Of a stretch of DNA of 36,900 nt, positions 12,035 to 33,592 are shown piece after piece. The stretch is taken from contig JBFWZL010000001.1 of the NCBI GenBank assembly GCA_050185455.1, positions 1 through 36,900 of the forward strand, in the 5' to 3' direction. The position numbers and the translations under genes are program-made. The first letter of the stretch is position 1; every line of letters begins with the position of its first letter. This DNA comes from Candidatus Binatia bacterium. GTDB taxonomy: Bacteria; Desulfobacterota; Binatia; Bin18. The notes beneath the pieces are model-generated. The model did no database searches. It was not told where the DNA came from and worked only from the letters and a program-made list of their open reading frames with translations.

Positions 12035-12049
12035 GCCAGGGAGACAACA

Positions 12050-14321: not shown

Positions 14322-14393
14322 AGAGTCAAAGAGTCTAGAGTCAAAGAGACAGACCCCCAGACGCAAGAGACTCAAGCACTAAGGAGGAAAGAC

Positions 14394-18775: not shown

Positions 18776-19960
18776 ATGGCGCAGCAGAAGCAAGTAGAGA
18801 CCGAACTGGTGATGGGCTGGGAGAGCCGCAAACGGCTACAAGCAAAAGGCTTCACCAACAAAGAAGGCCAGATCTTCCGGGCCATGGCCCCGGTGCTGGA
18901 GCAGGAAGGGCTGATTACGCCGACGCCGGCATCCTATGTGGTCCAACATTTTGACGTACCCGCCGTGATGCGTCCGGAAGACTGGAAGGTGACCATTGGC
19001 GGTCACGTCAAACAGCCAGTGACGCTGACCTATAATGACCTGCGCGAGCTGCCGGGCCGCACGGTGCGCATGGTCATGGAATGCTCGGGTAACGACGCGC
19101 AATTCTTCGATGCGCAGTACGCCGAGCGCTTTATCGGCCTCATGCGCTATCTCGATCCCGATTATCAGGGGAAGCGCTGGCAGGGAGGACTCATCTCGGC
19201 GGGAGAGTTTACTGGCGTGCCGTTAGCCAGTGTGCTGGAGAGAGCCGGACTCAAACCTAATGCCGTCAATGTGCGTGTGGAGGGGACGGATCGCGGCGCG
19301 CCCGACCTGGTTATGCATGGTCTGCCGCCATCAGACACCCCGGTGCCGCCGTTTAACTATGACAAAGGTCTGCCCATGGAGAAGGCGTTGCATCCGGATA
19401 CTATTCTGGCCTGGGCGCAAAACGGCGAAGCCCTGGACCACGTTCATGGCGCGCCGGTGCGGTTGGTCGTGCCCGGCTGGCCAGGGAACTGGTCGGTGAA
19501 GTGGGTGCAACGCATCGAGGTGCTCGATCGTCCGGCGACCTGCTGGTACCAGACCGAGTACTATTACTATAGTCAGTCGCCAGACGATCCCCAGCGCGAG
19601 ATCATTACGACCCTGCCCGTCAAATCGATGGTGACCTACCCCAAAGACGACAATCCGACGCTGTCACGCGGTCGCCATGTCCTGCGAGGGTTTGCGTGGA
19701 GTGGCGCGGGGGCGATTACGCGTGTGGAAGTCAGCCTGGATGACGGTAAGACCTGGCAGGCGGCGCATCTGGAAGAGCCGCGAGAGAAATGGTTGTGGAC
19801 GCGTTGGTCGCTACCGTGGGATTTTCAAGCACCAGGGCAATACGCGATTCTGTGTCGCGCCACGGATGAAGCCGGACGGGTACAGAGCCGCGAGGCGCGG
19901 TGGAACCAGTTGCGCAAGAACTTCGATGGCATCGTGCCGGTGCAGGTGACGATCGCATAG
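18776..19960 (+). CDS. sulfite-oxidase-fold molybdopterin oxidoreductase (SUOX family), no signal peptide
   Basis: 'ITPTPASYVVQHFDVP', 'WKVTIGGHVKQPVTLTYNDLRELP', the Mo-ligand cysteine context 'VMECSGN', and a dimerisation-domain motif 'RGFAWSGAGAITRVEVSLDDGKTWQAAHL'. The N-terminus is hydrophilic, with no Sec or Tat signal, and there is no heme domain. Confidence 0.85.
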   Translation: MAQQKQVETELVMGWESRKRLQAKGFTNKEGQIFRAMAPVLEQEGLITPTPASYVVQHFDVPAVMRPEDWKVTIGGHVKQPVTLTYNDLRELPGRTVRMVMECSGNDAQFFDAQYAERFIGLMRYLDPDYQGKRWQGGLISAGEFTGVPLASVLERAGLKPNAVNVRVEGTDRGAPDLVMHGLPPSDTPVPPFNYDKGLPMEKALHPDTILAWAQNGEALDHVHGAPVRLVVPGWPGNWSVKWVQRIEVLDRPATCWYQTEYYYYSQSPDDPQREIITTLPVKSMVTYPKDDNPTLSRGRHVLRGFAWSGAGAITRVEVSLDDGKTWQAAHLEEPREKWLWTRWSLPWDFQAPGQYAILCRATDEAGRVQSREARWNQLRKNFDGIVPVQVTIA

Positions 19961-19984
19961 TACGATTAAGAATAAGGAGCGTGT

Positions 19985-20863
19985 ATGTTCGATCTCAATA
20001 CCCTTCCGCAACTGATTCGCCGCGACATTGAGCACGGTGAAAGCAATTTCCCTACTATTCCCGATGACGTACCTGCCGTGGTGGAAATCGACCCAAGCTG
20101 GAAGCGGCAGTGGCTAGCCGCGCGGGCTCGGGTGCGGCAGGAGGGGCCGACCTATGAGGGCTTGGACGCCAAACGTCAACGGTACTTCGCCCGCTACCTG
20201 GCCGTGGTCGGTTTAGCCGAGCTGGAAATGATCGTCCTGGGCTGCACCTACGCCGCCACGCACTACGAAATGCCGGCGGCCTGGCGCACCTGCCTGATCA
20301 AACAGGCGTATGAGGACATGCAACACGCGGCCAGCTACATCACCCGCGGCTGCAAACTGAGCGGGGAGAACTATTGGAACGGCATCGCGGACGTGCCCTA
20401 TCGTGAGAATATCGCTAAGACATACCATCCCATCTTGCGGCGCGACCTCGGCGGGTTTTTCGCCGCGATTGGTCTGCATACCGAAGCCTATCCGGCGGAG
20501 ACCAACATCTTAGAGCCCTTTGCGTTGGACCCGGTGTTGGTGCGCTGGATGCCCAATGAGATTCAAGAGGAAGCTGGGCATCTGACGTTTCTCTATCCGG
20601 CGATGCGCGAGTATGTACACAGCGGCACGCCAGAGGAACAGGACCGGCGCAATCGACAAATGGTGGCGGACAATGAAACGCTGCTGGAAACGGCGATGGA
20701 GGCCAACCGCCGCAATGCTGAGACCTTTGTGGTGGGCAAGCTGGGCATGGACCCGGCAGTGATGGAAGCGTTCGCGCATATTCCTGAGCGTACGCGTTAT
20801 ATCTTCCAGACTATCGGTATCGAAGAGAGTTACTGGCCGCGGTATCTGAAAAAGAGCGATTAG
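19985..20863 (+). CDS. uncharacterised ferritin-like diiron-pattern protein (paralog of 13431)
   Basis: 292 aa, roughly half the residues identical to 13431-14321 by eye. Shared blocks include GCTYAAT.Y.MPAAWRTC.IKQAY.DMQHA, ILRRDLGGF..AIGLHTEAYPA, EI..EA.HLTFL, PEEQDRR.RQMV.DNE and IGIEESYWP.YLK. It starts 24 nt after the SUOX-like gene. Confidence 0.6.
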   Translation: MFDLNTLPQLIRRDIEHGESNFPTIPDDVPAVVEIDPSWKRQWLAARARVRQEGPTYEGLDAKRQRYFARYLAVVGLAELEMIVLGCTYAATHYEMPAAWRTCLIKQAYEDMQHAASYITRGCKLSGENYWNGIADVPYRENIAKTYHPILRRDLGGFFAAIGLHTEAYPAETNILEPFALDPVLVRWMPNEIQEEAGHLTFLYPAMREYVHSGTPEEQDRRNRQMVADNETLLETAMEANRRNAETFVVGKLGMDPAVMEAFAHIPERTRYIFQTIGIEESYWPRYLKKSD

Positions 20864-20988
20864 CACTCAGCGTTCAGCCGTCAGCTTTTTACAGAGGGAA
20901 ACGGTGAAACGGGGAGAAGAAACCCCCGACTGCCCGGTTCTTGTCTTGTGCTGAAAGCTGATAGCTATTTTTCAAAGGAGGGACACTT

Positions 20989-22686
20989 ATGGCGACCATG
21001 ATTAGCGCGCAGGCGCTCAAGACACTTATGGAGAGTGACGCATTGTATGCCGTGCTCGATGTGCGTGACTGGGGTGAGTTTACGCTGGGGCAGATTCCCG
21101 AGACGCTCTCCCTGCCGCGCGGACATCTGGAAAAATACATTGCCGTGCTGGTCCCTAAGAAAGACAGCCACGTCATTCTCTACTGTGACGCTGGCCAACG
21201 CTCAGCTCGCGCTGCCGCGACGCTAGAGTCGCTTGGCTATACGAACGCGTCAGTCTTAGATGGCGGCCTGCGCAGTTGGAAAGCGGCCGGCTATGAGACG
21301 ATCCACGGCTGGAGTTTGCGCGGCAAGGAATATGGGGAACGGTTACAGGTGGAGGAAGACATCCCGGAGCTGACGGCGGAAGAACTCCATACCCGGCTCG
21401 CACAGGGCGAGAAGCTCTACATTCTCGACACGCGGACCGAACCTGAGTTTCTGAACTCGCATCTGCCCGGGGCGTATAGCACGCCCGGCGGCCAGCTTCC
21501 GGTCACCGTCACGGATATCGTGCGGGAGCGGAGCATTCCCATCGTGACGACCTGCGCCGGTCGCACGCGGAGCTTGCTTGGCGCTCATTTGCTGCGGCGG
21601 ATGGGATTTCCCCAGGTGTACGCGCTCAAAGGGGGCACGGGCGCGTGGCGTATCGCTGGGTATGGCGGCGAATTACAGTCAGGCCCGGGCGTCCCTGTTC
21701 CACCGATCTCGGCGGTGGGGCAGGCGGCCTGCGCCCAGTTTGCCGAACGGGTTACTACTGAAGACAGCATCCCTTTCATGTCCCCGCGTGAACTCAAAAC
21801 TCGACAGGAACAGGGGGAACTGTGCTACTTACTGGATGTGCGTCAGCTCGACGAATATCGCGTCGGTCATGTTCCCGGCGCGCGCTTCTGTCCAGGGACG
21901 CAGGCTGCGTTATTGGTCGAGTGTTTCGTTGGCGTCAAGAATGCCGCCATTGTGACGACGTGCGATAGCCGGGCGCGCGGCATTCTGGCCGCCGCTCTGT
22001 TTAAAGACATGGGCTACCCCCACGTATTCGTGCTCGACGGCGGAACGACGGCGTGGACTGCAAACGGGTTTGCGCTGGAAACGGGTGACCCGCACGAAGT
22101 CGATTATGGCCAGCCGGGTTGGCTGGCTCGACTCCTCCTCGGGCTTCCTGCCGGGGTGGAATCGCAAGCACTGCCGGTCCCCGGTTTGGCTGAGGCGCGC
22201 GCGCAGACGAATTTTATCGCTCTAGGGGCATTACAAGCTCGGCTCGCTACTGGTGAACGGTGTGCGTTACTGGATCTGCGCAGTGCTGGAGACTTCGCCA
22301 CCGCCCATATCCCTGGCGCCCGCTGGCTGTCGCGTGGGAAGTTGGATCTCGAGGTCGAGCAGGAAGCGCCGGACAAGAATGCCGAAGTAGTGCTCTATTG
22401 TCGCAAAGGCGCGGAATCCACGCTATCCATGCCAATGCTGAAAGCCTTGGGCTACCACAGCGTGTCCGTCCGTGAAGGCGGTTTCGAGGCATGGAAGGGA
22501 GCAGGGCTTCCGACCGAGCAAGGGTTAGGAGCACAAGCCGAATTTGAGGAACTGGCGATTGCGGAAGTCGGATTGCTCGGCAGTGGACCGTATGGCTACA
22601 ACAATGAACGCATGGCCAAGTATTTGAAGGATGAGGAAGAACTAGGCGCGAAGTTCCGGCGAAGGACCGAGCGACCACAGGCATAA
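20989..22686 (+). CDS. four-domain rhodanese-like sulfurtransferase
   Basis: Four tandem rhodanese modules each retain an active-site Cys loop: 'YCDAGQRS', 'TCAGRTRS', 'TCDSRARG' and 'YCRKGAES'. Each is followed by the (L/V).GG...W motif. A ~60-aa charged C-terminal tail follows. Confidence 0.85.
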   Translation: MATMISAQALKTLMESDALYAVLDVRDWGEFTLGQIPETLSLPRGHLEKYIAVLVPKKDSHVILYCDAGQRSARAAATLESLGYTNASVLDGGLRSWKAAGYETIHGWSLRGKEYGERLQVEEDIPELTAEELHTRLAQGEKLYILDTRTEPEFLNSHLPGAYSTPGGQLPVTVTDIVRERSIPIVTTCAGRTRSLLGAHLLRRMGFPQVYALKGGTGAWRIAGYGGELQSGPGVPVPPISAVGQAACAQFAERVTTEDSIPFMSPRELKTRQEQGELCYLLDVRQLDEYRVGHVPGARFCPGTQAALLVECFVGVKNAAIVTTCDSRARGILAAALFKDMGYPHVFVLDGGTTAWTANGFALETGDPHEVDYGQPGWLARLLLGLPAGVESQALPVPGLAEARAQTNFIALGALQARLATGERCALLDLRSAGDFATAHIPGARWLSRGKLDLEVEQEAPDKNAEVVLYCRKGAESTLSMPMLKALGYHSVSVREGGFEAWKGAGLPTEQGLGAQAEFEELAIAEVGLLGSGPYGYNNERMAKYLKDEEELGAKFRRRTERPQA

Positions 22687-22704
22687 CGAAAAAAAGGAGA
22701 ACTC

Positions 22705-24225
22705 ATGCTTCCGTGTTTTCTCGACTGCCAACCATTTAGCGTCGTTCTCGACGCGCTCCAGGACGGGGTGGCGGTCTATGATCGAGACGGTGCTCTCATT
22801 TGGATCAACAGCAAAGCTTGTCAAATCCTGGGCATGCCGAGAGAAGAGCTGCTCGGACGTAACGTGAGTGAGATCTCCACCTTACCGACCGTGCGGGCTA
22901 TCGTTGCTCCTGAACTCGCGGGTTACTCGCTCAGCGAGATCCGCGCTCGCTTTACCCGCCTCCAAGACTACACCTCGCCCGGCTACATGGTGTTTACCAA
23001 CGGCAAGCAGATGCTCTACATGGGCGCAAACGTACGTGACGAACAGGGGACGATCCAATATGCCATTGCCACCATTCGTGATGTCACCGATCTCAATGAG
23101 GCAAGAAAAAAAGTCGACGAACTGCAGAAATTGACCTCACTCTACCAGGCGCAACTGCGCACTTTGCACACCCAGGTTTTGGGGCGAGATATCGTCTACC
23201 AAGGCGAGGTCATGCGCAAAGTATTGGAGCGCACGCTGCGCCTGGCGCGCCTCGACGGCAACATCCTGCTGACCGGAGAGACTGGTGTTGGGAAAACCTT
23301 GCTGGCCCGCTACATCCATGTGATGAGCCGCCGCGCCCAGGGGCCCTTCATCCATGTGAATTGCGCCAGTTTGCCAGAGTCGCTGATTGAGGCGGAGCTG
23401 TTCGGCTATAGCGAAGGCTCCTTTACCGGCGCTTCACGCAAGGGGCGCAAAGGCGTGATCGAGATAGGGCACGGAGGAACGGTCTTTCTGGACGAGATCG
23501 GCGACATGCCGATGGCGATGCAGGCCAAGCTGCTTACGGTCTTGGAAGACAAAGTGCTGCGACGGATTGGCGGGGAGAAATGGGTCACCCTCGATGTCCG
23601 GTTTCTGGCGGCCACAAACAAGGGGCCGGACGCGTTGCTGCAGGGTAAAGTGTTGCGCGAGGATCTGTACTACCGGTTGGCGACCAACCGGATAGACATC
23701 CCGCCTTTACGGGAACGGTCGGAGGACGTTCCCAGCCTCATCGACCATGCCTTGGCCGAATTCAATGAGCAGAACGGAACCCACCTGTCCTTCCACCCCG
23801 ATCTGGTGCATCAGTTACAGGGAATGTCCTGGTCGGGCAATGTACGCGAACTGAAGAACGTGGTGTGGCAGATCGCCTCGGAGAACGAAGGGGAGGATGG
23901 AGCGGTCACGCTCCAGATGCTTCCCGCTGATTTGATGGGAGCGTTGGTGGACGCAAATGGGCTCGCTGGAATGAGTTCACAGTTTGTTATTTCCTCTGCT
24001 AGACACGACGCCGACGAGGCGCAGCGCTGGCGTGAGCTGTGTCAACAATACGCGGGGAATGTGCACGCTATCGCCGATGCGTTGGGCCTCCACAGAACCA
24101 CCGTGATCCGCAAGCTCAAGAGTTATGGGTTGCGGTATGCGCGGAAGAAGTCTGCCCGTTCGCCCCGCGCCGAGACCGCTGCATCTGCTGCAGCTCCTGT
24201 GCCCGTCAACGGACGCCATTCCTAG
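22705..24225 (+). CDS. sigma-54-dependent transcriptional activator with N-terminal PAS domain
   Basis: PAS-like N-terminus (LDALQDGVAVYDRDGALIWINSKACQILG). AAA+ core with 'GETGVGKT', a 'GSFTGA' loop (23416-23433) and 'VFLDEIGDM'. C-terminal Fis-type HTH (IADALGLHRTTVIRKLKSYGL). No receiver domain. Confidence 0.9.
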   Translation: MLPCFLDCQPFSVVLDALQDGVAVYDRDGALIWINSKACQILGMPREELLGRNVSEISTLPTVRAIVAPELAGYSLSEIRARFTRLQDYTSPGYMVFTNGKQMLYMGANVRDEQGTIQYAIATIRDVTDLNEARKKVDELQKLTSLYQAQLRTLHTQVLGRDIVYQGEVMRKVLERTLRLARLDGNILLTGETGVGKTLLARYIHVMSRRAQGPFIHVNCASLPESLIEAELFGYSEGSFTGASRKGRKGVIEIGHGGTVFLDEIGDMPMAMQAKLLTVLEDKVLRRIGGEKWVTLDVRFLAATNKGPDALLQGKVLREDLYYRLATNRIDIPPLRERSEDVPSLIDHALAEFNEQNGTHLSFHPDLVHQLQGMSWSGNVRELKNVVWQIASENEGEDGAVTLQMLPADLMGALVDANGLAGMSSQFVISSARHDADEAQRWRELCQQYAGNVHAIADALGLHRTTVIRKLKSYGLRYARKKSARSPRAETAASAAAPVPVNGRHS

Positions 24226-24277
24226 AGGAGCGGCAGAGAGAAAGAAGAGAGATAGAGAAGGCTGAAAACTGATCGCT

Positions 24278-25816
24278 ATGATTGAACCAATGACGAAGGA
24301 AACGCTCCCAGCCACCTGGGCGAAAGTCATCGACCACACCAAGTGTATCGGCTGTCACGCCTGTAGCACCGCATGTAAATCGGAAAATCAGGTGCCGCTG
24401 TCAGTCAACCGCACCTACGTCAAATATGTTGATGTGGGCGTGTTCCCACACGTGCGGCGGGCGTTTCAGGTCACCCGCTGTAATCAATGCGCGGATCCAC
24501 CGTGCGTCTCCGCCTGCCCGACGGCGGCGATGTACGCCCGGCCTGACGGCATTGTCGATTTCGATAAATCCGTGTGCATCGGTTGTAAAGCCTGCATCGC
24601 GGCTTGTCCCTATGACGCGATCTTTATCAATCCGGAAGACCATGCAGCCGAGAAGTGCAACTTTTGCGCTCACCGTATCGACATCGGGCTCGAACCGGCA
24701 TGTGTGATTGTCTGTCCCACCGAGGCGATTCTCATCGGTGACCTCAACGATGCCTCCTCGAAAGTAGCGCAAGTGGTTGGCCGCACCCCGGTCACCGTGC
24801 GCCGTCCGGAAAAAGAAACGCGCCCAAAGCTGTTTTACAAAGGCGCGCACCAGGCCACGCTTGATCCGCTGGCGGCGGAACGCCCCGGAGGCGGACTGTT
24901 TCTGTGGAGCGAGCAAGGAAAGGTGTCTCACCAGGTGACCTCTGGGCATCCTGGACACCAGAATTCCTCGGCCGCGGCCATGCTCTCGTATGACGTGCCG
25001 CATCGCGCGCCGTGGGACTGGCGGCTGAGCCTGTATACGTGGACGAAAGGCATGGCTTCAGGCGCTTACCTCATCCCTGCACTGCTCGTGCTGTTTGGCC
25101 TCTTACCGACGGAGAGCCCGCTGTGGCAATGGGTCACGCCACTCGTCGCCGGGCTCTTTCTCGCGCTCACCGGCCTGATCCTCATTGCCGACCTCGATCA
25201 TCCCGAACGGTTCTATCTCATCTTCACCCGTCGGCAGTGGAAAAGTTGGTTGGTGCGTGGTGCGTTTATCATCACTGGCTACGCGCTCGTCTTGGGCCTG
25301 CACTTCCTGGCCAGCTTTTGGCACGAAGCCGGTCAACCTCTTCAGACGGCCCTGACAGCGCTGGGGCTCCCTTTAAGTGTGATGACCGCTGTCTACACGG
25401 CCTATCTCTTTGCCCAGGCGGCGGCGCGTGACCTGTGGCAGAATCCCCTCCTGCCGTTCCACTTTTTCGTGCAAGCGCTACTGGCGGGCTCGGCGGTGTT
25501 GCTGCCGTGCGCGGCGATGTTTGCGCCAGAAGCGGCGCCGCCGCTGGCGTGGCTCCTCAGCGGGATCTGCCTGTTGCATCTTCTACTGGTGTTAAGCGAA
25601 GTCACGCTGGCGCACCCAACGGCGCATGCCCGGTTGGCTGCTGAAGAAATGACGGTGGGAGCTTTCCGTCAGTACTTCCGGGCTGGAGTCGCACTGGTAG
25701 TTGTGGGCATCGCTGCCCCGTGGATCGGCATTCCGGCGGTCCTACCAGCCCTTGCCGGACTGCTCGCCCATGAACATGCCTATGTGCAGGCCGGACAGGC
25801 TGTGCCCCTCGCATAA
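24278..25816 (+). CDS. fusion of a four-cluster [4Fe-4S] ferredoxin subunit (PsrB/DmsB/SoeB-like) to an NrfD/PsrC-type membrane anchor
   Basis: The N-terminal ~190 aa carry four Cys groups: CIGCHACSTAC, CNQCADPPCVSACP, CIGCKACIAACP and CNFCAHR...ACVIVCP. The C-terminal ~290 aa hold about eight hydrophobic helices and the NrfD-type 'ADLDHPERFY' motif. No signal peptide. Confidence 0.8.
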   Translation: MIEPMTKETLPATWAKVIDHTKCIGCHACSTACKSENQVPLSVNRTYVKYVDVGVFPHVRRAFQVTRCNQCADPPCVSACPTAAMYARPDGIVDFDKSVCIGCKACIAACPYDAIFINPEDHAAEKCNFCAHRIDIGLEPACVIVCPTEAILIGDLNDASSKVAQVVGRTPVTVRRPEKETRPKLFYKGAHQATLDPLAAERPGGGLFLWSEQGKVSHQVTSGHPGHQNSSAAAMLSYDVPHRAPWDWRLSLYTWTKGMASGAYLIPALLVLFGLLPTESPLWQWVTPLVAGLFLALTGLILIADLDHPERFYLIFTRRQWKSWLVRGAFIITGYALVLGLHFLASFWHEAGQPLQTALTALGLPLSVMTAVYTAYLFAQAAARDLWQNPLLPFHFFVQALLAGSAVLLPCAAMFAPEAAPPLAWLLSGICLLHLLLVLSEVTLAHPTAHARLAAEEMTVGAFRQYFRAGVALVVVGIAAPWIGIPAVLPALAGLLAHEHAYVQAGQAVPLA

Positions 25817-25836
25817 TGATGAGAAGGAGGAAGAGC

Positions 25837-28752
25837 ATGAGTGTGACAAAGCGTGATGAGCAGGTGGGGGTGACACAGCAGGAAACTGAAGCGCGCAAGG
25901 AAACCTTCTATCAAGGGCCGAGCCATATTCATCTGGCGGCGTTTCCCCCTAAAGAGCGGTGGGATGACTGGGCGGAACTGGACTCACGGGCGTGGCCGCA
26001 ACGGGTCGAGCACCATTATATGTTGACGCCGACGACGTGCTTCAACTGTGAGTCCGCGTGTGGGCTGCTCGCCTACGTGGAGAGAGAGACGCTTGCCATT
26101 AGAAAATTTGAGGGCAATCCTGAACATCCGGGATCACGCGGTCGTAATTGCGCCAAGGGACCGGCTACGCTGAATCAAGTGACCGATCCGGATCGGATTC
26201 TGTACCCGCTCAAACGCGCCGGCAAACGTGGGGAAGGCAAGTGGCAGCGCGTCTCCTGGGATGAGGCGCTTGATGACATCGCTGGACGGGTCCGCCGAGC
26301 CCTTCAGGAGCGTCGGCACAACGAGATTATGTATCACGTCGGACGGCCAGGCGAGGATGGGTACACCGAGCGCGTACTGGCCGCCTGGGGAATTGATGGT
26401 CACAACTCGCATACCAACATCTGTTCGTCGAGCGGTCGCGCGGGGTATCAGTATTGGATGGGGCTTGACCGGCCCAGTCCCGACCATGCGAATGCGGAAG
26501 TGATCCTGCTCATCAGCGCTCACCTGGAATCGGGTCATTATTTCAACCCCCATGCGCAACGCATCATGGAGGGCAAAGGGCAGGGTGCGAAGCTGATCGT
26601 GTTCGATGTCCGCCTCTCCAACAGCGCCACCCACGCCGATTACTGGGTAGCGCCGTACCCAGGGACGGAAGCCGCGATCCTCTTGGCCATCGCGAACTAT
26701 GTGATTCAGCACGACCTCTATAACCGCGACTTCATCCGCCGCTGGTGGAACTGGCAGGAATACCTGCGCGTCGAGTATCCCGACCTTGCCCCGACGTTCG
26801 AGGGCTTCGAGGGCATCCTCAAACAGTTATACACGGATTACACCTTTGACTTCGCCGCGCGGGAGGCTGGGATCGAAGTGAAGACGCTTGAGGAGATCGC
26901 CCGCCTGGTGGCGACCGCGGGGACACGGCTCTCGACCCACACCTGGCGGAGCGCCACTGCCGGGAATCTCGGCGGCTGGCAGATTTCACGCTCGCTCTTT
27001 CTGCTCAACACGCTGCTTGGCGCCGTCGCCACCGAAGGCGGCGTGTATCCCAACGCCTGGAACAAATTCGTCCCGCGGCCAATCTATACTCCTCCACATC
27101 CACACGTGTGGAACGCGCTCACGTGGCCCACTGAGTACCCGCTGGCCATGAATGAACTCTCGTTCCTCTTGCCGCACTTCTTGAAGGAAGGCCGCGGCAA
27201 ACTCAATGTGTACTTCACTCGTGTGTATAACCCGGTGTGGACGAATCCCGACGGCTTTACCTGGATCGACGTGCTGAGCGACGAAGCGCTCGTCGGCCTG
27301 CACGTCGCGCTCACGCCCACCTGGAGTGAGACGGCCTATTTCGCGGATTACATTCTTCCCATGGGTCTGGGCAACGAACGGCATGACATCCATTCCTATG
27401 AAACCCATGACGCGCAGTGGCTCGGCTTCCGCCAACCCGTACTACGCGCCGCCCGTGAACGTCTGGGGGAGACGATCACTGATACCCGTCAAGTCAATCC
27501 TGGTGAAGTGTGGGAAGAGAACGAATTCTGGATCGAGCTGTCCTGGCGCATTGATCCAGATGGCGCGCTCGGCATCCGCAAGTTCTTCGAGTCGCAGCAG
27601 CGGCCCGGCGAGAAACTCACCGTCGATGAGTATTACGGTCATATTTTTGCCAACTCAGTCCCGGGTCTGCCGGAACGCGCGGCGGCCGAGGGCCTCTCTC
27701 CGCTGGCCTACATGCGTCGCTACGGCGCCTTCGAGGTCCAGAAGAACATCGGTCCCCTGCACGAACAGGAAGTTCCTGGAGAGGAATTAGTAGACTGCCG
27801 GACCGACGAGATTGGACGCATGTTCACGCGCGCTCCCAAACCCGCAAGTCCCAATATCGTTCCCCTCCCGACTCCGGACGGGGACGCCGAGGGGCGGCGG
27901 TTAGTGGGGGTGGAAGTAGACGGCAAGATTCTGCGCGGGTTTCCCACGCCGAGTGGGCGGCTCGAATTCTACTCTCAGACCTTGAAAGATTGGGGGTGGC
28001 CGGACTACATAGTGCCCACCTACATCCAAAGCCATATCCATCCAGAACGACTGGACAAAGACCAGATGGTGTTGATTCCCACGTTCCGCTTGCCCGTGCA
28101 GATTCACACGCGCAGCGCCAACGCCAAATGGCTGGACGAGATTGCCCACACCAATCCGTTGTGGATCAACACCAAGGATGCGGCGCGCATCGGCGTGCGC
28201 ACTGGCGATTTGACGCGAGTGGAAACCGAGATCGGGTATTTCGTTGTGAAGGCGTGGGTGACCGAAGGCATCCGGCCCGGCGTGGTTGGATGCAGCCATC
28301 ATATGGGCCGCTGGAAACTCTCCAATGACGGACAACGGCAAATGATGGCGACGGTTGGACTTGATCGTCAGGGCAGTCACTGGACACTGAGCCGTAAGAA
28401 AGGAGTCGAAGCTTTTGCGAGCGCCGATGCCGACAGCCAACGTATTTGGTGGACCGACGCGGGCGTGCACCAAAACCTGACGTTCCCCGTACATCCCGAT
28501 CCCATTTCCGGCATGCACTGCTGGCATCAGGCCGTGCGCGTTACCCGGGCGCGGGTGGACGATCGCTACGGGGACATTCACGTGGATACCGAGAAGTCGC
28601 ATGCCGCCTACAAACACTGGCTAGAGCGCACGCGCCCGGCCGAACAGTTCTCTCCCGATGGGACGCGCCGCCCTTACTGGCTGCTCCGCCCGCTAAAACC
28701 GGCCCGCGCCGTCTATCGGCTGCCACAAGCAGAAGACGGAAAAGGGGAATAA
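25837..28752 (+). CDS. molybdopterin (bis-MGD, DMSO-reductase superfamily) oxidoreductase catalytic subunit, Tat-less
   Basis: ~971 aa. The N-terminal FS0 motif 'CFNCESACGLL...NCAKG' is C-x2-C-x3-C-xn-C. Length and layout are typical of Psr/Phs/Ttr/Soe-type A subunits. ATG 25837 follows AAGGAGG. There is no twin-arginine signal with a hydrophobic core. Confidence 0.85.
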   Translation: MSVTKRDEQVGVTQQETEARKETFYQGPSHIHLAAFPPKERWDDWAELDSRAWPQRVEHHYMLTPTTCFNCESACGLLAYVERETLAIRKFEGNPEHPGSRGRNCAKGPATLNQVTDPDRILYPLKRAGKRGEGKWQRVSWDEALDDIAGRVRRALQERRHNEIMYHVGRPGEDGYTERVLAAWGIDGHNSHTNICSSSGRAGYQYWMGLDRPSPDHANAEVILLISAHLESGHYFNPHAQRIMEGKGQGAKLIVFDVRLSNSATHADYWVAPYPGTEAAILLAIANYVIQHDLYNRDFIRRWWNWQEYLRVEYPDLAPTFEGFEGILKQLYTDYTFDFAAREAGIEVKTLEEIARLVATAGTRLSTHTWRSATAGNLGGWQISRSLFLLNTLLGAVATEGGVYPNAWNKFVPRPIYTPPHPHVWNALTWPTEYPLAMNELSFLLPHFLKEGRGKLNVYFTRVYNPVWTNPDGFTWIDVLSDEALVGLHVALTPTWSETAYFADYILPMGLGNERHDIHSYETHDAQWLGFRQPVLRAARERLGETITDTRQVNPGEVWEENEFWIELSWRIDPDGALGIRKFFESQQRPGEKLTVDEYYGHIFANSVPGLPERAAAEGLSPLAYMRRYGAFEVQKNIGPLHEQEVPGEELVDCRTDEIGRMFTRAPKPASPNIVPLPTPDGDAEGRRLVGVEVDGKILRGFPTPSGRLEFYSQTLKDWGWPDYIVPTYIQSHIHPERLDKDQMVLIPTFRLPVQIHTRSANAKWLDEIAHTNPLWINTKDAARIGVRTGDLTRVETEIGYFVVKAWVTEGIRPGVVGCSHHMGRWKLSNDGQRQMMATVGLDRQGSHWTLSRKKGVEAFASADADSQRIWWTDAGVHQNLTFPVHPDPISGMHCWHQAVRVTRARVDDRYGDIHVDTEKSHAAYKHWLERTRPAEQFSPDGTRRPYWLLRPLKPARAVYRLPQAEDGKGE

Positions 28753-28777
28753 GAGGGAAGACGGAACTGACATTATC

Positions 28778-30553
28778 ATGTGGTTGCTCCGGTATCTTCC
28801 ATTTCTTGATCTGGCTTCCTATCGCTTTCGTGCTTTTCGTCGAGATCTGTTAGCGAGTTCGACCGTCACGTTTCTCGATATTCCTCAAGGCGTCGCTTAT
28901 GCCATGATCGCTGGGCTTCCTCCAGCCATGGGACTCTACGCCGCCGCCGTGCCAGCGATTGTAGGGGCGCTCTTTCGTAGTTCGCGCCATGTCGTCACCG
29001 GGCCTACCAATGCCCTCAGTTTGCTAGTCGGCAGCGCGGTGGCGGGGGCGGCAGCCCATACTGGCGCTGGACCCATGGAGGTCGGCGTCACGCTGGCGTT
29101 CTTCGTTGGGCTCATGCAGTTCTTTGCCGGCCTGCTGCGGCTCGATGCCGTCGCCGATTACATTTCTCTGCCCGTCGTGCGTGGGTACATTACCGGCGCC
29201 GCCATTCTTATCGCGGTCGGCCAACTGCCGAATGTCACTGGTACGGCAGGATCGAGCGGGACTCTTGGGCCCATGCTCGTAGCCTGGAGCAGGGACTTGT
29301 CTCACCCCAACCCACTTGCCGTTACGTTTGCCTGTGGCACCGTGGTCATCGTGCTCCTCCTCCGTTGGGTCGACCGGCGCATGCCGGGTTCTCTCATTGT
29401 CATGGTGGTCAGCATTGGCGCCGATAGTATGCTGCACTTGCATGCCCACGGACTCAGGGTGGTGGCGGATATCGCGCCGATACCGGCTGGCCTGCCTCCC
29501 TTGACGGTTCCCTCCGTGCAGTACTGGGGAACGTTGGCTCCTGCCGCTCTCGCCTGCGCTGTCCTCTCACTGGTGGAGTCGAGTTCGGTGGCGCGTGCGC
29601 TCGCTGCTCGCACAGGGCAACAGCTCGATATGGCGGCGGAATTTGCAGGTCAGGGGCTGGCGAACCTGGCCGCCGCTTTTTCCGGAGGATATCCGGTGAG
29701 CGGCAGTCTCTCCCGGTCAGCGTTGAATCAACAAGCCGGAGCGGAGAGTCGGCTGTCCGCGTTGTTTTGCGGGCTACTCATGCTCGCAGTATTGCTTATT
29801 TTAGGACCAGTGGTTGGGAGAACGCCAGTAGCGAGTCTTGCCGGATTACTACTCGTGTTAGCCAATGACCTCGTCGATCGTCAGCAGATCCGGATGACGC
29901 TCCAGGGGACCATGAGTGATCGGGCGGCGTTTGTGGCGACGACCGTGGGAACCTGGGTCCTTCCGCTCGATCAAGCGATTTATTTGGGTGTGGGGATGAG
30001 CATCATCTTGTTCCTGCGGCGGGCGCGCTTGCTGACGATCCGCGAAATGACGATCAGTGAGAAACGACGGTTCCGCGAGATCGATCCCGACGCGAATGAA
30101 ACGGGGAGATCATGTTCGGCGATTCGCATCATGAACCTGACAGGGCCATTGTTTTTCGCCGCCGCGGGGGAGTTACAGTCCTTGCTCGACCGCTTCCTGA
30201 GCGACTCCAGGCTGCGGGTGCTTATCCTGCGGCTCCGACAGGCGGACGCTGTAGATGTGACGACCGCCAGTGTTCTGGAAGCAACCGCCGCCAAGCTGGC
30301 GCGGGAAGGGAAAACGCTTCTGCTCCTTGGGGTACGTCCTGCGACAATGCAGTTACTCGAGCGGACTGGTGTGGCTGAACGTCTTGGCCGAGAGCATCTC
30401 TTTCCCGCCCAAGCTGGATGGTTTACCGCCATGGAGGTGGCGCTGCGGCGAGCGCTGGCGCTGGCTGGAGCGCACGCGTGTGGAGCGACCTGCCCGTTAG
30501 CGGAGTATGTCGCTGCCCAGGAGACTTTGCGATCAGCGGTGAAAACCGCATGA
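28778..30553 (+). CDS. SulP-family anion (sulfate) permease with C-terminal STAS domain
   Basis: 'LDIPQGVAYAMIAGLPPAMGLYAA.VPAIVGALFRSSRHVVTGP' is the SulP signature region and many TM segments follow. The C-terminal STAS-like region is 'IMNLTGPLFFAAAGEL...VLILRLRQADAVDVT'. Confidence 0.9.
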   Translation: MWLLRYLPFLDLASYRFRAFRRDLLASSTVTFLDIPQGVAYAMIAGLPPAMGLYAAAVPAIVGALFRSSRHVVTGPTNALSLLVGSAVAGAAAHTGAGPMEVGVTLAFFVGLMQFFAGLLRLDAVADYISLPVVRGYITGAAILIAVGQLPNVTGTAGSSGTLGPMLVAWSRDLSHPNPLAVTFACGTVVIVLLLRWVDRRMPGSLIVMVVSIGADSMLHLHAHGLRVVADIAPIPAGLPPLTVPSVQYWGTLAPAALACAVLSLVESSSVARALAARTGQQLDMAAEFAGQGLANLAAAFSGGYPVSGSLSRSALNQQAGAESRLSALFCGLLMLAVLLILGPVVGRTPVASLAGLLLVLANDLVDRQQIRMTLQGTMSDRAAFVATTVGTWVLPLDQAIYLGVGMSIILFLRRARLLTIREMTISEKRRFREIDPDANETGRSCSAIRIMNLTGPLFFAAAGELQSLLDRFLSDSRLRVLILRLRQADAVDVTTASVLEATAAKLAREGKTLLLLGVRPATMQLLERTGVAERLGREHLFPAQAGWFTAMEVALRRALALAGAHACGATCPLAEYVAAQETLRSAVKTA

Positions 30554-30605
30554 TGGGGTAGACAGTCTACACAAGCCGACTCCAAGCCATTGCCCACAGT
30601 GCAGA

Positions 30606-30645
30606 GTGTGCGTTTTGCCATGTGCCGAGCGCACACGGATTGCAC
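30606..30645 (+). promoter_or_regulatory. inverted repeat / candidate activator-binding site (UAS)
   Basis: GTGTGCG (30606-30612)-N17-CGCACAC (30630-30636), with TGCCATG (30616-30622) inside and TTGCAC (30640-30645) after it. It lies ~120 nt upstream of the sigma-54 -12 element. The words are shared with 11242-11288. Confidence 0.45.
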
Positions 30646-30729
30646 AAAGACGCGTGTTGCTGCTTGCGGTTTCGTGAATAAAGGAGTGATTTCCCGACGT
30701 TTTACCTTGGTCAGTCTAATAGACACAGG

Positions 30730-30745
30730 CGGTACGGCTCTTGCT
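30730..30745 (+). promoter_or_regulatory. sigma-54 (RpoN) -24/-12 promoter
   Basis: CGGTACGGCTCTTGCT against the consensus TGGCACG-N4-TTGCW. GG and TTGC fall at exactly the canonical spacing. It is ~70 nt upstream of ATG 30814. Two sigma-54 activators are encoded in the window, one immediately downstream in the same transcription unit. Confidence 0.6.
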
Positions 30746-30813: not shown

Positions 30814-32130
30814 ATGCGCAAGAAGAAGATGCACTTCGCCCAGTTCCTGATGCACAGCCCCACGTACCACAGTCTGGCCATGTGGCGACATCCACATACA
30901 GAACCGCGCTACGACTGGGCACGGCCTGAGCTATACCAGCATATCGCGCAGGTCTGTGAGCGCGGCAAATTGGACATGGTCTTTTTCGCTGACGTCAGTT
31001 TCATCTCCGACACCTATACTGACTCCCTCGACCCGGCGATTCGCTACGCCACTCAGGCGCCCAACCATGACCCGACTCCTTTGCTTTCCTGGCTTGGCGC
31101 AGTGACCCGCAAGGTTGGCTTGGGCGGCACCTTCTCGATCAGCCACCAGCATCCGTTTTATGTCGCGCGTCTGTGGGCGACCTTGGATCATCTCACCCGT
31201 GGCCGGGCGGCCTGGAATGTGGTGACGTCGATCAACCACAACGAATCGGCCAATTATGGCGAAGAGTTGTTGGCGCACGACTTGCGCTACGAGCGTGCCG
31301 AGGAGTTCATGGAGGTCTGCGTCAAGCTGTGGAATAGTTGGGAGGCGGACGCGGTGGTGATGGATCGCGAGCGAGGGATCTTTGCTGACTCCGCCAAGGT
31401 GCATCGCATTGAGCATGACGGGCGCTTCTTCAAGTCCCGTGGTCCGCTGAATGTCACGCGTTCACCCCAGAACGGACCAGCGATTATCCAGGCGGGCGCG
31501 TCCGCGAAGGGGAGAGCGTTTGCCGCCAAGTACGCCGAGGCCATTTTTGCCATTCATCCCTTTGCCGAGGGTGCAGCCGAATACTATGCCGATGTCAAAG
31601 GGCGGATGGAGGATCTGGGGCGCAATCCCGATCACTGCAAGATCCTCTTTGGCGTGCAGCCGATCGTCGGACGCACGGAACAAGAGGCGCGTGAGAAGCA
31701 AGAGTTCCATAATAGTCTCGTGCCTGTGGAAGCGGGGCTGACCCTTCTCTCCGGGCACCTCGATTATGATTTTTCCCGCCTCAACCTTGATGACATGATG
31801 GAATACTCCCCTGACTTCAGTATTCAGGGGCTCAGCAAGATGTACGGCAAGATGGCGGGGCGAAAACTTACCCTGCGGGAAGTCGCGCAAATGCATGGAC
31901 AGAGCGTAAGTCTGCCCCAAATCGTGGGTACACCGGAGCAGGTGGCGGATCAACTGGAAGCCTATTGTGAGAAGGCCGGTGGCGATGGCTTCATGCTCTC
32001 GCCGATTTACACGCCGGGCGCAATCGAGGAGTTCGTGGATTTGGTCGTCCCCGTGCTTCAGAAGCGCGGGCTGTTTCGCGAGGACTACGCTGGCAGTACG
32101 CAGCGTGATCACCTGCATCAGGATGCCTGA
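30814..32130 (+). CDS. NtaA/SnaA/DszA-type LLM flavin monooxygenase (second copy)
   Basis: 438 aa, collinear with 12050-13354 (KKMH...F, 'LDHLTRGRAAWNVVTS', 'IIQAGASAKGRAFAAKYAEAIF', C-terminal 'VPVLQKRGLFREDY'). Confidence 0.85.
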   Translation: MRKKKMHFAQFLMHSPTYHSLAMWRHPHTEPRYDWARPELYQHIAQVCERGKLDMVFFADVSFISDTYTDSLDPAIRYATQAPNHDPTPLLSWLGAVTRKVGLGGTFSISHQHPFYVARLWATLDHLTRGRAAWNVVTSINHNESANYGEELLAHDLRYERAEEFMEVCVKLWNSWEADAVVMDRERGIFADSAKVHRIEHDGRFFKSRGPLNVTRSPQNGPAIIQAGASAKGRAFAAKYAEAIFAIHPFAEGAAEYYADVKGRMEDLGRNPDHCKILFGVQPIVGRTEQEAREKQEFHNSLVPVEAGLTLLSGHLDYDFSRLNLDDMMEYSPDFSIQGLSKMYGKMAGRKLTLREVAQMHGQSVSLPQIVGTPEQVADQLEAYCEKAGGDGFMLSPIYTPGAIEEFVDLVVPVLQKRGLFREDYAGSTQRDHLHQDA

Positions 32131-32143
32131 GCGAGGAGGGAGT

Positions 32144-33592
32144 ATGTTGCCCTGCTTTATGGAATGTCAGCCTTTTGGTCTGATCCTCGACGCCCTGCAA
32201 GACGGGGTGACGATCTATGACCGCAACGGCGATTTGATCTGGATTAACGACAAGGCGTGCCAGATCCTGGGTCTCCTGCGCGCTGAGTTGATCGGGCGCA
32301 ATGTGAGCGAGATCGCGACCCTGCCAACCGTCCAGGCGCTCGTGACCCGAGACGCTGCTGGTCGCCCGCTCACCGCGTTGCCGACCTACAGCACGCAGAT
32401 CGAAGATTACGCCTCCCCCGGTTACATGGTCTTCACCAACGGAAAAAAACTGCTCTATATGGGGACCTACGTGCGTGATGAGGACGATGCCGTGCAGTAT
32501 GCTATCTACACCATCCGTGCAGCGACTGATCTTGACGAAGCGCGGCGGAAGATCGACGAGCTGCAAAAACTGACCACCCTCTATCAGGATCAACTGCGTA
32601 CGTTGCACCTTCAGGTCTTGGGCCAGGAGATCGTGGCGCGTAGCGAGATCATGCAAAAGGTGCTGGAGCGCGCCCTCAAATTTGCTCGTGTCGATGGCAG
32701 TGTCCTGCTCACGGGCGAGACCGGCGTGGGGAAGAACTTGCTCGCCCGTTACCTTCACGTCATGAGTCGGCGGGCGCAGGGGCCGTTCATCCATGTCAAC
32801 TGCGCTACTTTGCCGGAACCGTTGATCGAGGCGGAACTGTTTGGCTACAGCGAAGGCGCCTTCACGGATGCCGCGCGCAAGGGACGGAAAGGGGTGATCG
32901 AACTGGGGCAGGGAGGCACGGTCTTTCTTGACGAGATTGGCGATATGCCGCCCGGCATGCAGGCCAAGCTGCTCACCGTGTTGGAAGAGAAAGTCATCCG
33001 CCGTATCGGTGGTGAGAAATGGCTCCCGGTCGATGTGCGTTTCGTGGCGGCGACCAATAAACGCCCGGATACCCTCGTGCAGGGACAGAGCCTGCGAGAA
33101 GATCTCTATTATCGTTTGGCGTTGCATAAACTGCACATCCCACCCGTACGGGAACGGCCCGACGACATCCCCGAACTCATTGATTACGCGCTCACGGAGT
33201 TTAACCGGCAGAGCGAGGCGCGCTGTGCGTTTCATCCCGACTTGGTGGCGCGGCTCCAGACGTTGCCTTTTCCCGGCAACGTGCGCGAAATCAAAAACCT
33301 GGTGTGGCAGATTGCTTCCGAGTTAGGTGGGACCGGGAGCGAGATTACGTGGCAGATGCTGCCTCCCGATCTGCTCCAAACGCTGGAGTCGTCAGGCGCG
33401 TCGCTGGCTTCAGGGACACGAGTCGCTACTGTACTCGAACACTCCATCGCTGAGGCGCGGCGGTTGCGGGAACTCTGTCAGCGGCATCAGGGAGATGTGA
33501 CTGCCATAGCAAAAGCCTTGGGGGTGCATCGCACGACGGTCACCCGCCGGCTCAGCGCCTACGGTATTGTCTATACACGCAAACGGATGTAG
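32144..33592 (+). CDS. sigma-54-dependent transcriptional activator with PAS domain (paralog of 22705)
   Basis: ATG 32144 follows GAGGAGGG. The longer ORF from 31967 overlaps the monooxygenase and is rejected. The N-terminus MLPCFMECQPFGLILDALQDGVTIYDRNGDLIWINDKACQILG is nearly identical in layout to the 22705 protein. Also present: 'GETGVGKN', a variant loop 'GAFTDA' (32855-32872) and a Fis-type HTH. Confidence 0.9.
   Translation: MLPCFMECQPFGLILDALQDGVTIYDRNGDLIWINDKACQILGLLRAELIGRNVSEIATLPTVQALVTRDAAGRPLTALPTYSTQIEDYASPGYMVFTNGKKLLYMGTYVRDEDDAVQYAIYTIRAATDLDEARRKIDELQKLTTLYQDQLRTLHLQVLGQEIVARSEIMQKVLERALKFARVDGSVLLTGETGVGKNLLARYLHVMSRRAQGPFIHVNCATLPEPLIEAELFGYSEGAFTDAARKGRKGVIELGQGGTVFLDEIGDMPPGMQAKLLTVLEEKVIRRIGGEKWLPVDVRFVAATNKRPDTLVQGQSLREDLYYRLALHKLHIPPVRERPDDIPELIDYALTEFNRQSEARCAFHPDLVARLQTLPFPGNVREIKNLVWQIASELGGTGSEITWQMLPPDLLQTLESSGASLASGTRVATVLEHSIAEARRLRELCQRHQGDVTAIAKALGVHRTTVTRRLSAYGIVYTRKRM

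Follow-up and report, generated by a model that had tools for sequence, protein, structure and literature searches.

Do seven consecutive genes that all appear to point at sulfur chemistry form one dedicated pathway, or are they neighbors with separate histories? This question is raised by a 36,900-nucleotide stretch of DNA from Candidatus Binatia bacterium (GenBank assembly GCA_050185455.1, contig JBFWZL010000001.1, positions 1 to 36,900 of the forward strand; hereafter, the window), in which an 11.8-kb block at 18776-30553 encodes two unrelated molybdoenzymes, a multidomain rhodanese, a transcriptional activator, a ferredoxin-NrfD fusion, a SulP permease and a protein of obscure affinity. 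An initial annotation, made from the sequence alone, interpreted the septet as a single organosulfur system in which flavin monooxygenases release sulfite, both molybdoenzymes oxidize it in the cytoplasm and SulP exports the resulting sulfate. Our analysis shows that the block is a patchwork of separately inherited modules, mostly linked to sulfur. The reading that we consider probable is that independently conserved modules stand side by side in a Binatia catabolic island rather than making up a dedicated seven-gene system, and that one of them, the ferredoxin-NrfD fusion with its molybdenum subunit, acts as a sulfite:quinone oxidoreductase supplied with sulfite by flavin monooxygenases.

Gene content of the block

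The genes of the block and the associated features discussed below are as follows (EBP, enhancer-binding protein; LLM, luciferase-like monooxygenase; PGD, pyranopterin guanine dinucleotide; TM, transmembrane segments).

18776..19960, + strand: SUOX-fold molybdoenzyme, 394 aa (Pfam Oxidored_molyb and Mo-co_dimer)
19985..20863, + strand: predicted R2-like protein, 292 aa (no Pfam or NCBIfam match; AlphaFold and Foldseek)
20989..22686, + strand: four-domain rhodanese, 565 aa (four rhodanese stretches in Pfam)
22705..24225, + strand: EBP1 (Pfam PAS, Sigma54_activat and HTH_8)
24278..25816, + strand: ferredoxin-NrfD fusion, 512 aa (Pfam Fer4_11 and NrfD)
25816..28752, + strand: Mo/W-bisPGD catalytic subunit, 978 aa (Pfam Molybdop_Fe4S4, Molybdopterin and Molydop_binding)
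28778..30553, + strand: SulP/STAS anion permease, 591 aa, about 10 TM (Pfam Sulfate_transp and STAS)
30594..30745, + strand: regulatory cassette with a sigma-54-type promoter (sigma-54 scan; conserved in locus L001)
30814..32130, + strand: NtaA/DmoA-family FMNH2-dependent monooxygenase, DszA-like LLM (TIGR03860; PDB 5tlc)
32144..33592, + strand (ORF opens at 31967): EBP2, PAS and sigma-54 activator (Pfam; alignment to EBP1)
13431..14321, + strand: R2-like paralogue, 296 aa (BLASTP; tblastn cross-matches)
11417..17038, + strand: upstream monooxygenase block (Pfam, NCBIfam and PDB)

The seven genes of the block are separated by gaps of -1 to 125 nt and all lie on the + strand. Because each has dozens to many homologues, these are real genes rather than chance open reading frames (ORFs). 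Searches with Pfam and NCBIfam hidden Markov models bore out the gene-by-gene part of the initial annotation in full: seven consecutive co-directional genes with the domains assigned to them, including PAS, Sigma54_activat and HTH_8 in the activator, four rhodanese domains each with a Cys loop, Fer4_11 and NrfD in a single polypeptide, and Sulfate_transp with STAS in the permease. The same holds for the claim that the SUOX-fold protein lacks a signal peptide and the large molybdoenzyme a twin-arginine translocation (Tat) signal: the N-termini MAQQKQVETELVMGW, MMRRRKSMSVTKRDEQ and MIEPMTKETLPATW of the signal-less and Tat-less proteins contain no hydrophobic h-region, and alignments with homologues begin where the window proteins begin. 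The listed ORFs are the longest possible, each opening at the first start codon after a stop, so that a Tat signal hidden 5' of the annotated starts was rejected. Scans of the window for sigma-70 promoters and terminators yielded chance level only.

Two halves of the block are conserved separately

Relatives of the Mo subunit were scanned in one genome per GTDB species, and at least 598 genomes proved to carry a close one. The best 80 of these at least 598 species loci served for comparison with every protein of the window; in them the Mo subunit is 70-78% identical, and they derive from Binatia, Acidobacteriota, Gemmatimonadota, Chloroflexota, Actinomycetota, Myxococcota and Dormibacterota; a reverse scan covered 80 metagenome loci with relatives of the SUOX-like protein (50-79% identity). 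The two halves of the block never occurred together. None of the 80 species loci contained the SUOX-like, 292-aa, four-domain rhodanese or monooxygenase genes, and none of the 80 metagenome loci contained the FeS-NrfD, Mo or SulP genes. The claim that the septet is one system thus failed the gene-neighborhood test that had been proposed for it. The SUOX-like gene and the four-domain rhodanese are a conserved pair, but the link of that pair to the FeS-NrfD/Mo genes is not conserved.

The FeS-NrfD fusion gene, by contrast, lies upstream of the Mo gene in 68 of the 80 species loci (61-77% identity), and many of the remaining 12 loci end at contig borders. A close SulP gene (67-69% identity) directly follows the Mo gene in 5 of the 80, all of the Binatia type; a SulP gene directly 3' of the Mo gene was seen only in L002, L016, L017, L019, L021 and L053 (66-69% identity). 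We refer to the fusion, the Mo subunit and SulP as Module 1, and to the genes at 18776-22686 as Module 2. One of the loci, L019, deposited as an uncultured Enterobacteriaceae bacterium, carries genes for a persulfide dioxygenase (PDO)-rhodanese fusion, FeS-NrfD, Mo and SulP at 67-76% identity; this locus looks Binatia-like and the Enterobacteriaceae label of the metagenome-assembled genome (MAG) is probably wrong.

The closest relative contig, L001 (94% identity), retains FeS-NrfD, Mo, a SulP gene broken by an insertion sequence (IS), the LLM and the PAS-EBP, and has an IS element and phenol-hydroxylase genes where the window has its first four genes. In L001:10087-17701, the SulP gene is fragmented by transposase and recombinase insertions, and an ISL3 element lies immediately upstream of the FeS-NrfD gene. 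These insertions indicate mobile-element activity around Module 1.

Module 1 as a candidate sulfite:quinone oxidoreductase

The co-occurrence described above supports the FeS-NrfD fusion, the Tat-less bis-molybdopterin guanine dinucleotide (bis-MGD) enzyme and SulP as a coherent module with cytoplasmic orientation. Homologues of the Mo subunit are 70-94% identical across at least 7 phyla, and the fused architecture and the gene order, with the fusion (BC) ahead of the Mo subunit (A), persist at 46% identity (L097). The Mo subunit has the cysteines of an FS0 cluster (C75, C78, C82 and C112), and its Cys203, a putative Mo ligand, aligns with a Cys of PsrA and ArrA that we take to be the Mo ligand of those enzymes. 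Four ferredoxin motifs with 16 Cys in total, sufficient for four [4Fe-4S] clusters, occupy residues 23-146 of the fusion protein and are followed by an NrfD domain (Pfam, 63 bits, residues 242-481). A simple hydropathy scan, which may miss an eighth, identified seven hydrophobic segments, and the Lys/Arg-rich loops are on the side of the Fe-S domain; by the positive-inside rule, the Fe-S domain therefore faces the cytoplasm. SulP matches TIGR00815 below the cut-off.

What Module 1 might do is suggested by its neighbors elsewhere. Clustering of neighboring genes across the 80 species loci showed that the commonest neighbor is a Lactamase_B plus rhodanese protein of the persulfide dioxygenase type (33 of 80), followed by a NarJ/TorD-like chaperone (29), DUF445 (21), a single rhodanese and a universal stress protein (Usp; 12 each), and a cysteine-desulfurase-type aminotransferase (9). 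In Binatia reference chromosomes, the genes for PDO-rhodanese, FeS-NrfD, Mo, SulP and glutamate-cysteine ligase occur in this order, and L002 additionally has a sulfide:quinone oxidoreductase (SQR)-like gene, YeeE-like genes and a sigma-54 EBP. On plasmid pRHL3 of Rhodococcus jostii, DsrE and TusA are encoded directly upstream of FeS-NrfD and Mo, together with metallo-beta-lactamase (MBL) hydrolases and ArsR regulators; in Thermomicrobium, a CsoR/CstR-type regulator directly precedes the module; and L097 combines PDO-rhodanese and two YeeE-like genes with the fused FeS-NrfD and Mo. Because PDO-rhodanese, TusA/DsrE, YeeE-like and SQR neighbors make sulfite, we infer that Module 1 is a sulfite:quinone oxidoreductase facing the cytoplasm and that, in Binatia, sulfate exits through SulP. 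Under this scenario, sulfite would be oxidized at the Mo of the 978-aa subunit, electrons would pass from FS0 through the four [4Fe-4S] clusters to quinone in the NrfD membrane domain, and sulfate would leave the cytoplasm via SulP. In the window, flavin monooxygenases would desulfurize organosulfur compounds to sulfite, of which Module 1 would dispose. The organosulfur-to-sulfite-to-sulfate route with export put forward in the initial annotation is therefore plausible for 24278-33592, whereas the 'supercluster' around it is not supported.

Several points weigh against this reading. Persulfide dioxygenase and SQR are absent from the window itself, and the export direction of SulP is inferred only. 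PDO-rhodanese may also yield thiosulfate, in which case the substrate of Module 1 could be thiosulfate or a sulfane species. Names given to the Mo-subunit family in IMG are at the level of clusters of orthologous groups (COG) only, and the family may lie outside the KEGG Orthology (KO) definition of SoeABC, the known cytoplasmic sulfite-oxidizing complex. In the window, a sigma-54 scan found no site before the FeS-NrfD gene, nor before the SUOX-like or rhodanese genes. Finally, the tight spacing of all seven genes permits co-transcription in this host, whether or not the arrangement is conserved elsewhere.

Relationship to SoeABC and to sulfur reductases

SoeABC has been described as a cytoplasm-facing Mo enzyme with a ferredoxin subunit and a membrane anchor (PMC8076601, PMC5114278), encoded in the canonical order soeA-soeB-soeC (PMC5114278); the examples considered are Alvin_2491-2489 of Allochromatium vinosum and aq_1234/1232/1231 of Aquifex aeolicus. 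Judged by the published description, not by sequence, Module 1 resembles SoeABC in several respects. Its Mo-bisPGD subunit has an FS0 motif near the N-terminus and a putative Cys ligand, its ferredoxin part would bind four clusters, and its membrane part is predicted to be a haem-less anchor of the NrfD/PsrC type (about 8 TM in the description of SoeC); the Mo and Fe-S subunits lack Tat or Sec signals, which places the active site in the cytoplasm, and the family is genetically linked to sulfite-producing sulfur oxidation. The initial annotation did not recognize the gene set as a described system and overlooked this resemblance of its FeS/NrfD/bis-MGD part.

There are also differences from SoeABC. 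In Module 1, the SoeB and SoeC equivalents are fused into a polypeptide of about 510 aa rather than being separate subunits, the gene order is BC-A rather than A-B-C, and a SulP/STAS gene is attached in Binatia. Soe-bearing groups are listed as Proteobacteria, Aquificae and Clostridia (PMC8076601), whereas the Module 1 family is found in Binatia, Acidobacteriota, Gemmatimonadota, Chloroflexota, Actinomycetota, Myxococcota and haloarchaea and apparently escapes the SoeABC calls of KO-based pipelines. In a case in point, a Bohai Sea study reports SoeABC as 'not detected' (PMC12345210), and its station codes match those of the Gemmatimonadota MAGs L045, L064, L071 and L093, all of which carry FeS-NrfD/Mo; KO-based annotation thus probably misses the Module 1 family. 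No protein named Soe was among the matches in a search of 1.8 billion representative sequences. Two loci considered as canonical soeABC, P0343 and P0317, were rejected because both are of the fused BC-A type, P0343 being a fragmented assembly.

A tblastn search against plasmids recovered only family members and Arx-like enzymes of Azoarcus and Sulfurovum. The latter, on pAZKH of Azoarcus sp. KH32C (L006) and a plasmid of Sulfurovum mangrovi (L007), are the nearest relatives outside the family (35-39% identity); their FeS and NrfD proteins are encoded separately, with the B-C-A arrangement unchanged, and a TorD chaperone gene is also present. The Azoarcus enzyme adjoins an ACR3 arsenite pump and a set of PhnD-like, histidine kinase and sigma-54 regulator genes, and is possibly related to arsenic.

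The principal rival to the sulfite dehydrogenase assignment is that FeS-NrfD/Mo draws electrons from quinol and functions as a cytoplasmic reductase or lyase of sulfane sulfur, polysulfide or thiosulfate, akin to bSre, Psr or Phs. In sequence comparisons with NCBIfam and PDB, the Mo subunit indeed matches PhsA and PsrA best; PDO-rhodanese, TusA, DsrE and YeeE-like neighbors handle persulfide and thiosulfate; and the bacterial sulfur reductase bSreA has been grouped with SoeA in a lineage described as a large, unappreciated and highly conserved radiation that collapses at 50% identity (PMC10100899). Such a radiation fits the extreme conservation of the Mo subunit and also leaves room for a sulfur or thiosulfate reductase role. 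However, the PhsA and PsrA matches are partial and far under the cut-off (196 vs 694 bits), most carriers belong to aerobic soil lineages in which the module stands beside a sulfite-producing, O2-dependent dioxygenase, and an oxyanion product would suit the SulP-type permease encoded immediately 3' of the Mo gene in Binatia. We therefore regard a reductase or lyase as unlikely.

Module 1 can also be compared with the sulfide and persulfide clusters of heterotrophs, namely, SQR-PDO with its regulator, which we take to be FisR, and the cst operon with CstB and the regulator that we take to be CstR. Relatives of Module 1 cluster with PDO-rhodanese fusions, SQR-like flavoproteins, YeeE-like transporters and TusA/DsrE, and sigma-54 EBP, CsoR-like or ArsR-type regulators stand beside them, as in those clusters; the window differs in having neither PDO nor SQR. 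To our knowledge, the described SQR-PDO and cst clusters end at sulfite or thiosulfate and include no molybdoenzyme.

The SUOX-fold protein belongs to an arginine-less clade

The first gene of the block encodes a SUOX-fold protein (Oxidored_molyb, 162 bits; Mo-co_dimer, 76 bits) that is related to SoxC (E = 3e-42) and SorA (E = 1e-34) but falls below the NCBIfam cut-off of every sulfite dehydrogenase family: SoxC, 241.9 vs 420; SorA, 181.3 vs 600; SorT, 167.8 vs 570. In an alignment with SorA, the register of which was fixed with the help of deposited mutant chains (R55M, H57A and Y236F), the Mo-ligand Cys103 (MECSGN), His58 and the Tyr of 'QTEYYYY' are retained. By contrast, SorA Arg55 is replaced by Val56 and SorA Arg109 by Ala108, with Asp107 adjacent; we take these positions to be Arg138 and Arg190 of the chicken enzyme. 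Both arginines are likewise missing in 28 aligned homologues and in every one of the 67 first-copy genes from the metagenome loci. Given that both substrate-binding arginines are missing across the clade, the canonical sulfite pocket is absent, which makes a second sulfite oxidase an unlikely role for the SUOX-fold protein, contrary to the proposal that two unrelated molybdoenzymes of the block both oxidize sulfite. Compared with the Group-2 SUOX enzymes (SorAB, SorT, SoxCD, and plant and animal sulfite oxidases), the window protein shares the domain architecture, the ECSGN Mo-Cys, the His and the Tyr. It differs in lacking a signal peptide, in having no cytochrome gene in the block, and in that many of its relatives are co-encoded with a second paralogue that keeps the first Arg.

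The arginine-less clade recurs with four-domain rhodaneses and cysteine-dioxygenase-like genes and thus remains linked to sulfur, although probably not as a sulfite oxidase. The rhodanese of the window has its Cys loops at C66, C189, C325 and C471 (CDAGQRS, CAGRTRS, CDSRARG and CRKGAES), and a four-domain rhodanese is encoded directly upstream of the SUOX-like gene in 8 of the 80 metagenome loci. Two types of operons were apparent. Type I (L136, L137, L150, L158, L163, L172, L175 and L176) encodes a cysteine dioxygenase (CDO_I)-like protein, the four-domain rhodanese, the arginine-less SUOX, Cupin_2, a second SUOX paralogue keeping the first Arg in 'F[YF][IV]RNHW', a 92-aa ORF, a major facilitator superfamily (MFS) transporter and a cyclase. 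Type II (L118, L119, L133, L159, L165 and L167) encodes the arginine-less SUOX and the beta and alpha subunits of electron-transfer flavoprotein (ETF) between two carboxyltransferases, which suggests ETF as a possible electron acceptor of a cytoplasmic SUOX-fold enzyme. In L014, a 63%-identical SUOX-like gene and a 52%-identical four-domain rhodanese occur with two copies of the 483-aa amidohydrolase encoded in the upstream monooxygenase block of the window, as well as TauD, CoA-transferases and a carboxyltransferase; in L012 and L014, homologues of this amidohydrolase adjoin SUOX-like or R2-like genes. Module 2 would thus belong with the upstream LLM, amidohydrolase and R2-paralogue genes and would act on a sulfur compound other than free sulfite.

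A bolder possibility, which we consider doubtful but specific enough to state, is that the arginine-less SUOX clade and the four-domain rhodanese form a cytoplasmic molybdoenzyme system for an organic S-oxo compound, e.g., a sulfinate-to-sulfonate dehydrogenase; that the contig encodes a complete cytoplasmic route from thiol or sulfone through sulfinate, sulfonate and sulfite to sulfate; and that the main sulfite dehydrogenase in soil Acidobacteriota, Actinomycetota, Chloroflexota, Gemmatimonadota and Binatia is the fused-BC enzyme, as yet unannotated. Along such a route, FMNH2- or TauD-type oxygenases would desulfonate, and the fused-BC Soe-like enzyme with SulP would complete the oxidation to sulfate. 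The operons with cysteine-dioxygenase-like enzymes, which make sulfinates, and the co-encoded second SUOX paralogue with its first arginine both fit a sulfinate-to-sulfonate dehydrogenase.

A rare family of R2-like proteins

The 292-aa protein has no sequence match in Pfam, NCBIfam or PDB and represents a rare family, with 75 homologues among 5.8e9 proteins. Its AlphaFold (AF2) model is all-helical and highly confident (pLDDT 95.8), and all 50 of the 50 Foldseek matches listed are ferritin-like, mostly the R2 subunit of ribonucleotide reductase (RNR), with NrdF/R2, aldehyde-deformylating oxygenase (ADO) and PaaA at the top, albeit with TM-scores near 0.55 and weak E-values, none better than 3e-3. 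Among 41 sequences of the family, E79, D111xxH114, H165/E167, E192 and E196xxH199 are invariant. The protein is thus predicted to be a ferritin/R2-like four-helix bundle with a putative di-metal site, which supports the diiron pattern noted in the initial annotation. It shares the predicted bundle and the E...(D)xxH...E...ExxH pattern with ferritin-like di-iron proteins (RNR R2/NrdF, the R2-like ligand-binding oxidase, ADO and PaaA), and so does its 296-aa paralogue in the window. It differs in that Asp takes the place of Glu in the first of the xxH motifs, in that its sequence matches no Pfam, NCBIfam or PDB entry, and in a TM-score of only about 0.55.

This paralogue (13431-14321), 57% identical to the 292-aa protein, is encoded between an NtaA-type monooxygenase and the 483-aa amidohydrolase, so that the family occurs twice on one 37-kb contig. 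Elsewhere, the 292-aa protein's relatives stand beside amidohydrolase and LLM genes and in one case beside genes for PDO-rhodanese and YeeE-like proteins. The 292-aa protein therefore associates with amidohydrolase and LLM genes rather than with the molybdoenzyme set to which it had been assigned. A 289-aa ORF that follows the SUOX-like gene in L013 was rejected as a homologue (17% identity).

Monooxygenases and the sigma-54 cassette

The flanks of the block encode flavin monooxygenases, as originally proposed. Two proteins, at 12050-13354 (480 bits) and 30814-32130 (501 bits), exceed the TIGR03860 NtaA/DmoA cut-off of 279.7; for the latter, the best solved relative is DszA/BdsA (PDB 5tlc, 375 bits), and a 92%-identical homologue occupies the same position in L001. 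The FMN reductase at 11417-12034 is MsuE/SsuE-like, as had been noted, but remains under the equivalog cut-offs. It opens the upstream block (11417-17038), in which it is accompanied by the NtaA/DmoA LLM, the R2-like paralogue, an Amidohydro_2 protein (483 aa) and a third LLM with sub-threshold similarity to SfnG. In the window, none of the equivalog cut-offs for SfnG (best 157 vs 383), SfnB (36 vs 431), SsuD (at most 97 vs 518) or MsuE (117 vs 212.5) is reached.

The two activators, EBP1 and EBP2, are 66% identical paralogues, PAS domain included, and bracket the FeS-NrfD, Mo, SulP and LLM genes. EBP2 probably starts at the ATG at 32144, preceded by the strong ribosome-binding site GAGGAGGGAG, the ORF from 31967 being over-extended; the alignment with EBP1 begins at residue 60 of the EBP2 ORF, and the start at 32144 abolishes the overlap with the monooxygenase gene. 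A sigma-54-type promoter, cGGTACGGCTCTTGCt, lies at 30730-30745, 84 nt 5' of the start codon of the DszA-like LLM, at the end of an approximately 150-nt cassette (30594-30745) with palindromic GTGCGC/GCGCAC elements. The window-wide count of sigma-54 sites does not exceed that in shuffled sequences. The cassette is present twice in L001 (5274-5427 and 17753-17964), once ahead of the operon for FeS-NrfD and Mo (83% identity) and once ahead of the LLM gene (68%). Furthermore, L097 has a perfect site, TGGCACGACAGTTGCA (TGGCAC-N5-TTGCA), before the operon running from PDO to FeS-NrfD-Mo, beside a divergent PAS-EBP to which EBP1 is 33% identical. Joint sigma-54 control of Module 1 and the LLM is thus plausible in this lineage, although in the window the putative promoter is seen for the LLM only. 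The third module (Module 3, 30594-33592, with EBP1 as a duplicate) consists of a DszA-like FMNH2 monooxygenase behind a sigma-54-type promoter cassette, along with its PAS-sigma-54 activator.

The closest parallels to Module 3 are the sfn/msu (SfnR) and Dsz 4S systems, with which the window shares an FMN reductase, NtaA/DszA-family FMNH2 monooxygenases, and a sigma-54 activator and promoter. The sfnECR/sfnFG precedent invoked in the initial annotation thus applies to the sigma-54 activator and promoter before an FMNH2 monooxygenase, but not to the proteins themselves, none of which reaches the SfnG, SfnB, SsuD, MsuE or DszC equivalog cut-offs; moreover, the activators of the window carry a PAS domain, and no DszB-type desulfinase was identified in the window.

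One system or a patchwork

With the individual modules characterized, the dedicated seven-gene route, in which two cytoplasmic molybdoenzymes oxidize the sulfite released by monooxygenases and SulP exports sulfate, appears decidedly unlikely. Co-directionality with gaps of at most 125 nt, the NtaA/DmoA/DszA-like LLMs and MsuE-like reductase at the flanks, the sulfur linkage of the SUOX-like clade elsewhere via CDO-like and rhodanese neighbors, and the same inference previously made for SAR202 (PMC5395668) all speak for such a route. They are countered by the failure of the two halves to co-occur in any of 160 related loci, by a SUOX-like protein that lacks both sulfite-binding arginines and scores under every sulfite dehydrogenase cut-off, by the company that the R2-like gene keeps with amidohydrolase and LLM genes, and by L001, where, at 94% identity, an IS element and phenol-hydroxylase genes replace the first four genes. 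Least probable of all is the absence of any common sulfur function, with an island for recalcitrant organics (rich in Amidohydro_2, LLM, DUF1329/DUF1302, SnoaL, glyoxalase, acyl-CoA dehydrogenase (ACAD), CoA-transferase and carboxyltransferase genes), SUOX-like and R2-like proteins acting on carbon or nitrogen substrates (relatives of the former lie among ACAD, PaaA/C, HpaB, ETF and carboxyltransferase genes) and a housekeeping sulfite detoxifier landed via mobile elements (the L001 copy of the module is bordered and interrupted by IS elements), because the SUOX-like clade recurs with four-domain rhodanese and CDO-like thiol dioxygenase genes, one type of promoter cassette precedes both the DszA-like LLM and the Mo module in L001, and TauD and PDO genes lie near relatives of the R2-like and SUOX-like genes.

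Side-by-side modules, with a sulfite:quinone oxidoreductase among them, thus account best for the block. It works like a SoeABC-type sulfite sink, the persulfide/sulfite detoxification clusters and sigma-54-dependent FMNH2 desulfurization (sfn/msu and Dsz), yet belongs to none of these, given the fused BC, the reversed gene order, the missing SUOX arginines and the equivalog scores that were not reached. Genuinely uncharacterized are the arginine-less SUOX clade and the R2-like family; the third component is a widespread, under-annotated Soe-like enzyme.

Implications for sulfite disposal

Genes for the conversion of organosulfur compounds to sulfite have already been documented in Binatota genomes (PMC8262859), and the combination of LLMs with a sulfite oxidase has been argued for SAR202 (PMC5395668). 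Binatota, SAR202 and many soil lineages are accordingly predicted to free sulfite from sulfones and sulfonates (PMC8262859, PMC5395668), although the disposal of this toxic product has rarely been addressed. The FeS-NrfD/Mo module is a strong candidate for the disposal route of these lineages, given its presence in at least 598 species-level genomes, its 70-78% identity across phyla and its linkage to persulfide dioxygenase. The family carries generic names only, and SoeABC has been reported as absent in at least one KO-based survey of similar MAGs. If this module is indeed the sulfite dehydrogenase of these phyla, direct sulfite oxidation is underestimated in gene inventories of the soil and sediment sulfur cycle. 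New molybdenum and di-metal organosulfur chemistry, in turn, could be sought in two well-defined and testable targets, the arginine-less SUOX clade and the R2-like family.

The remainder of the contig

Outside the modules, the contig (1-11123 and 17144-18577) is a dense catabolic island. It encodes five Amidohydro_2 paralogues, a pimC-like acyl-CoA dehydrogenase (rejected as a DszC/SfnB-type enzyme because it scores no more than 28 to 36 bits against DszC and SfnB), and SnoaL, glyoxalase and alpha/beta-hydrolase proteins, together with two DUF1329 proteins and one DUF1302 protein that have signal-like N-termini.

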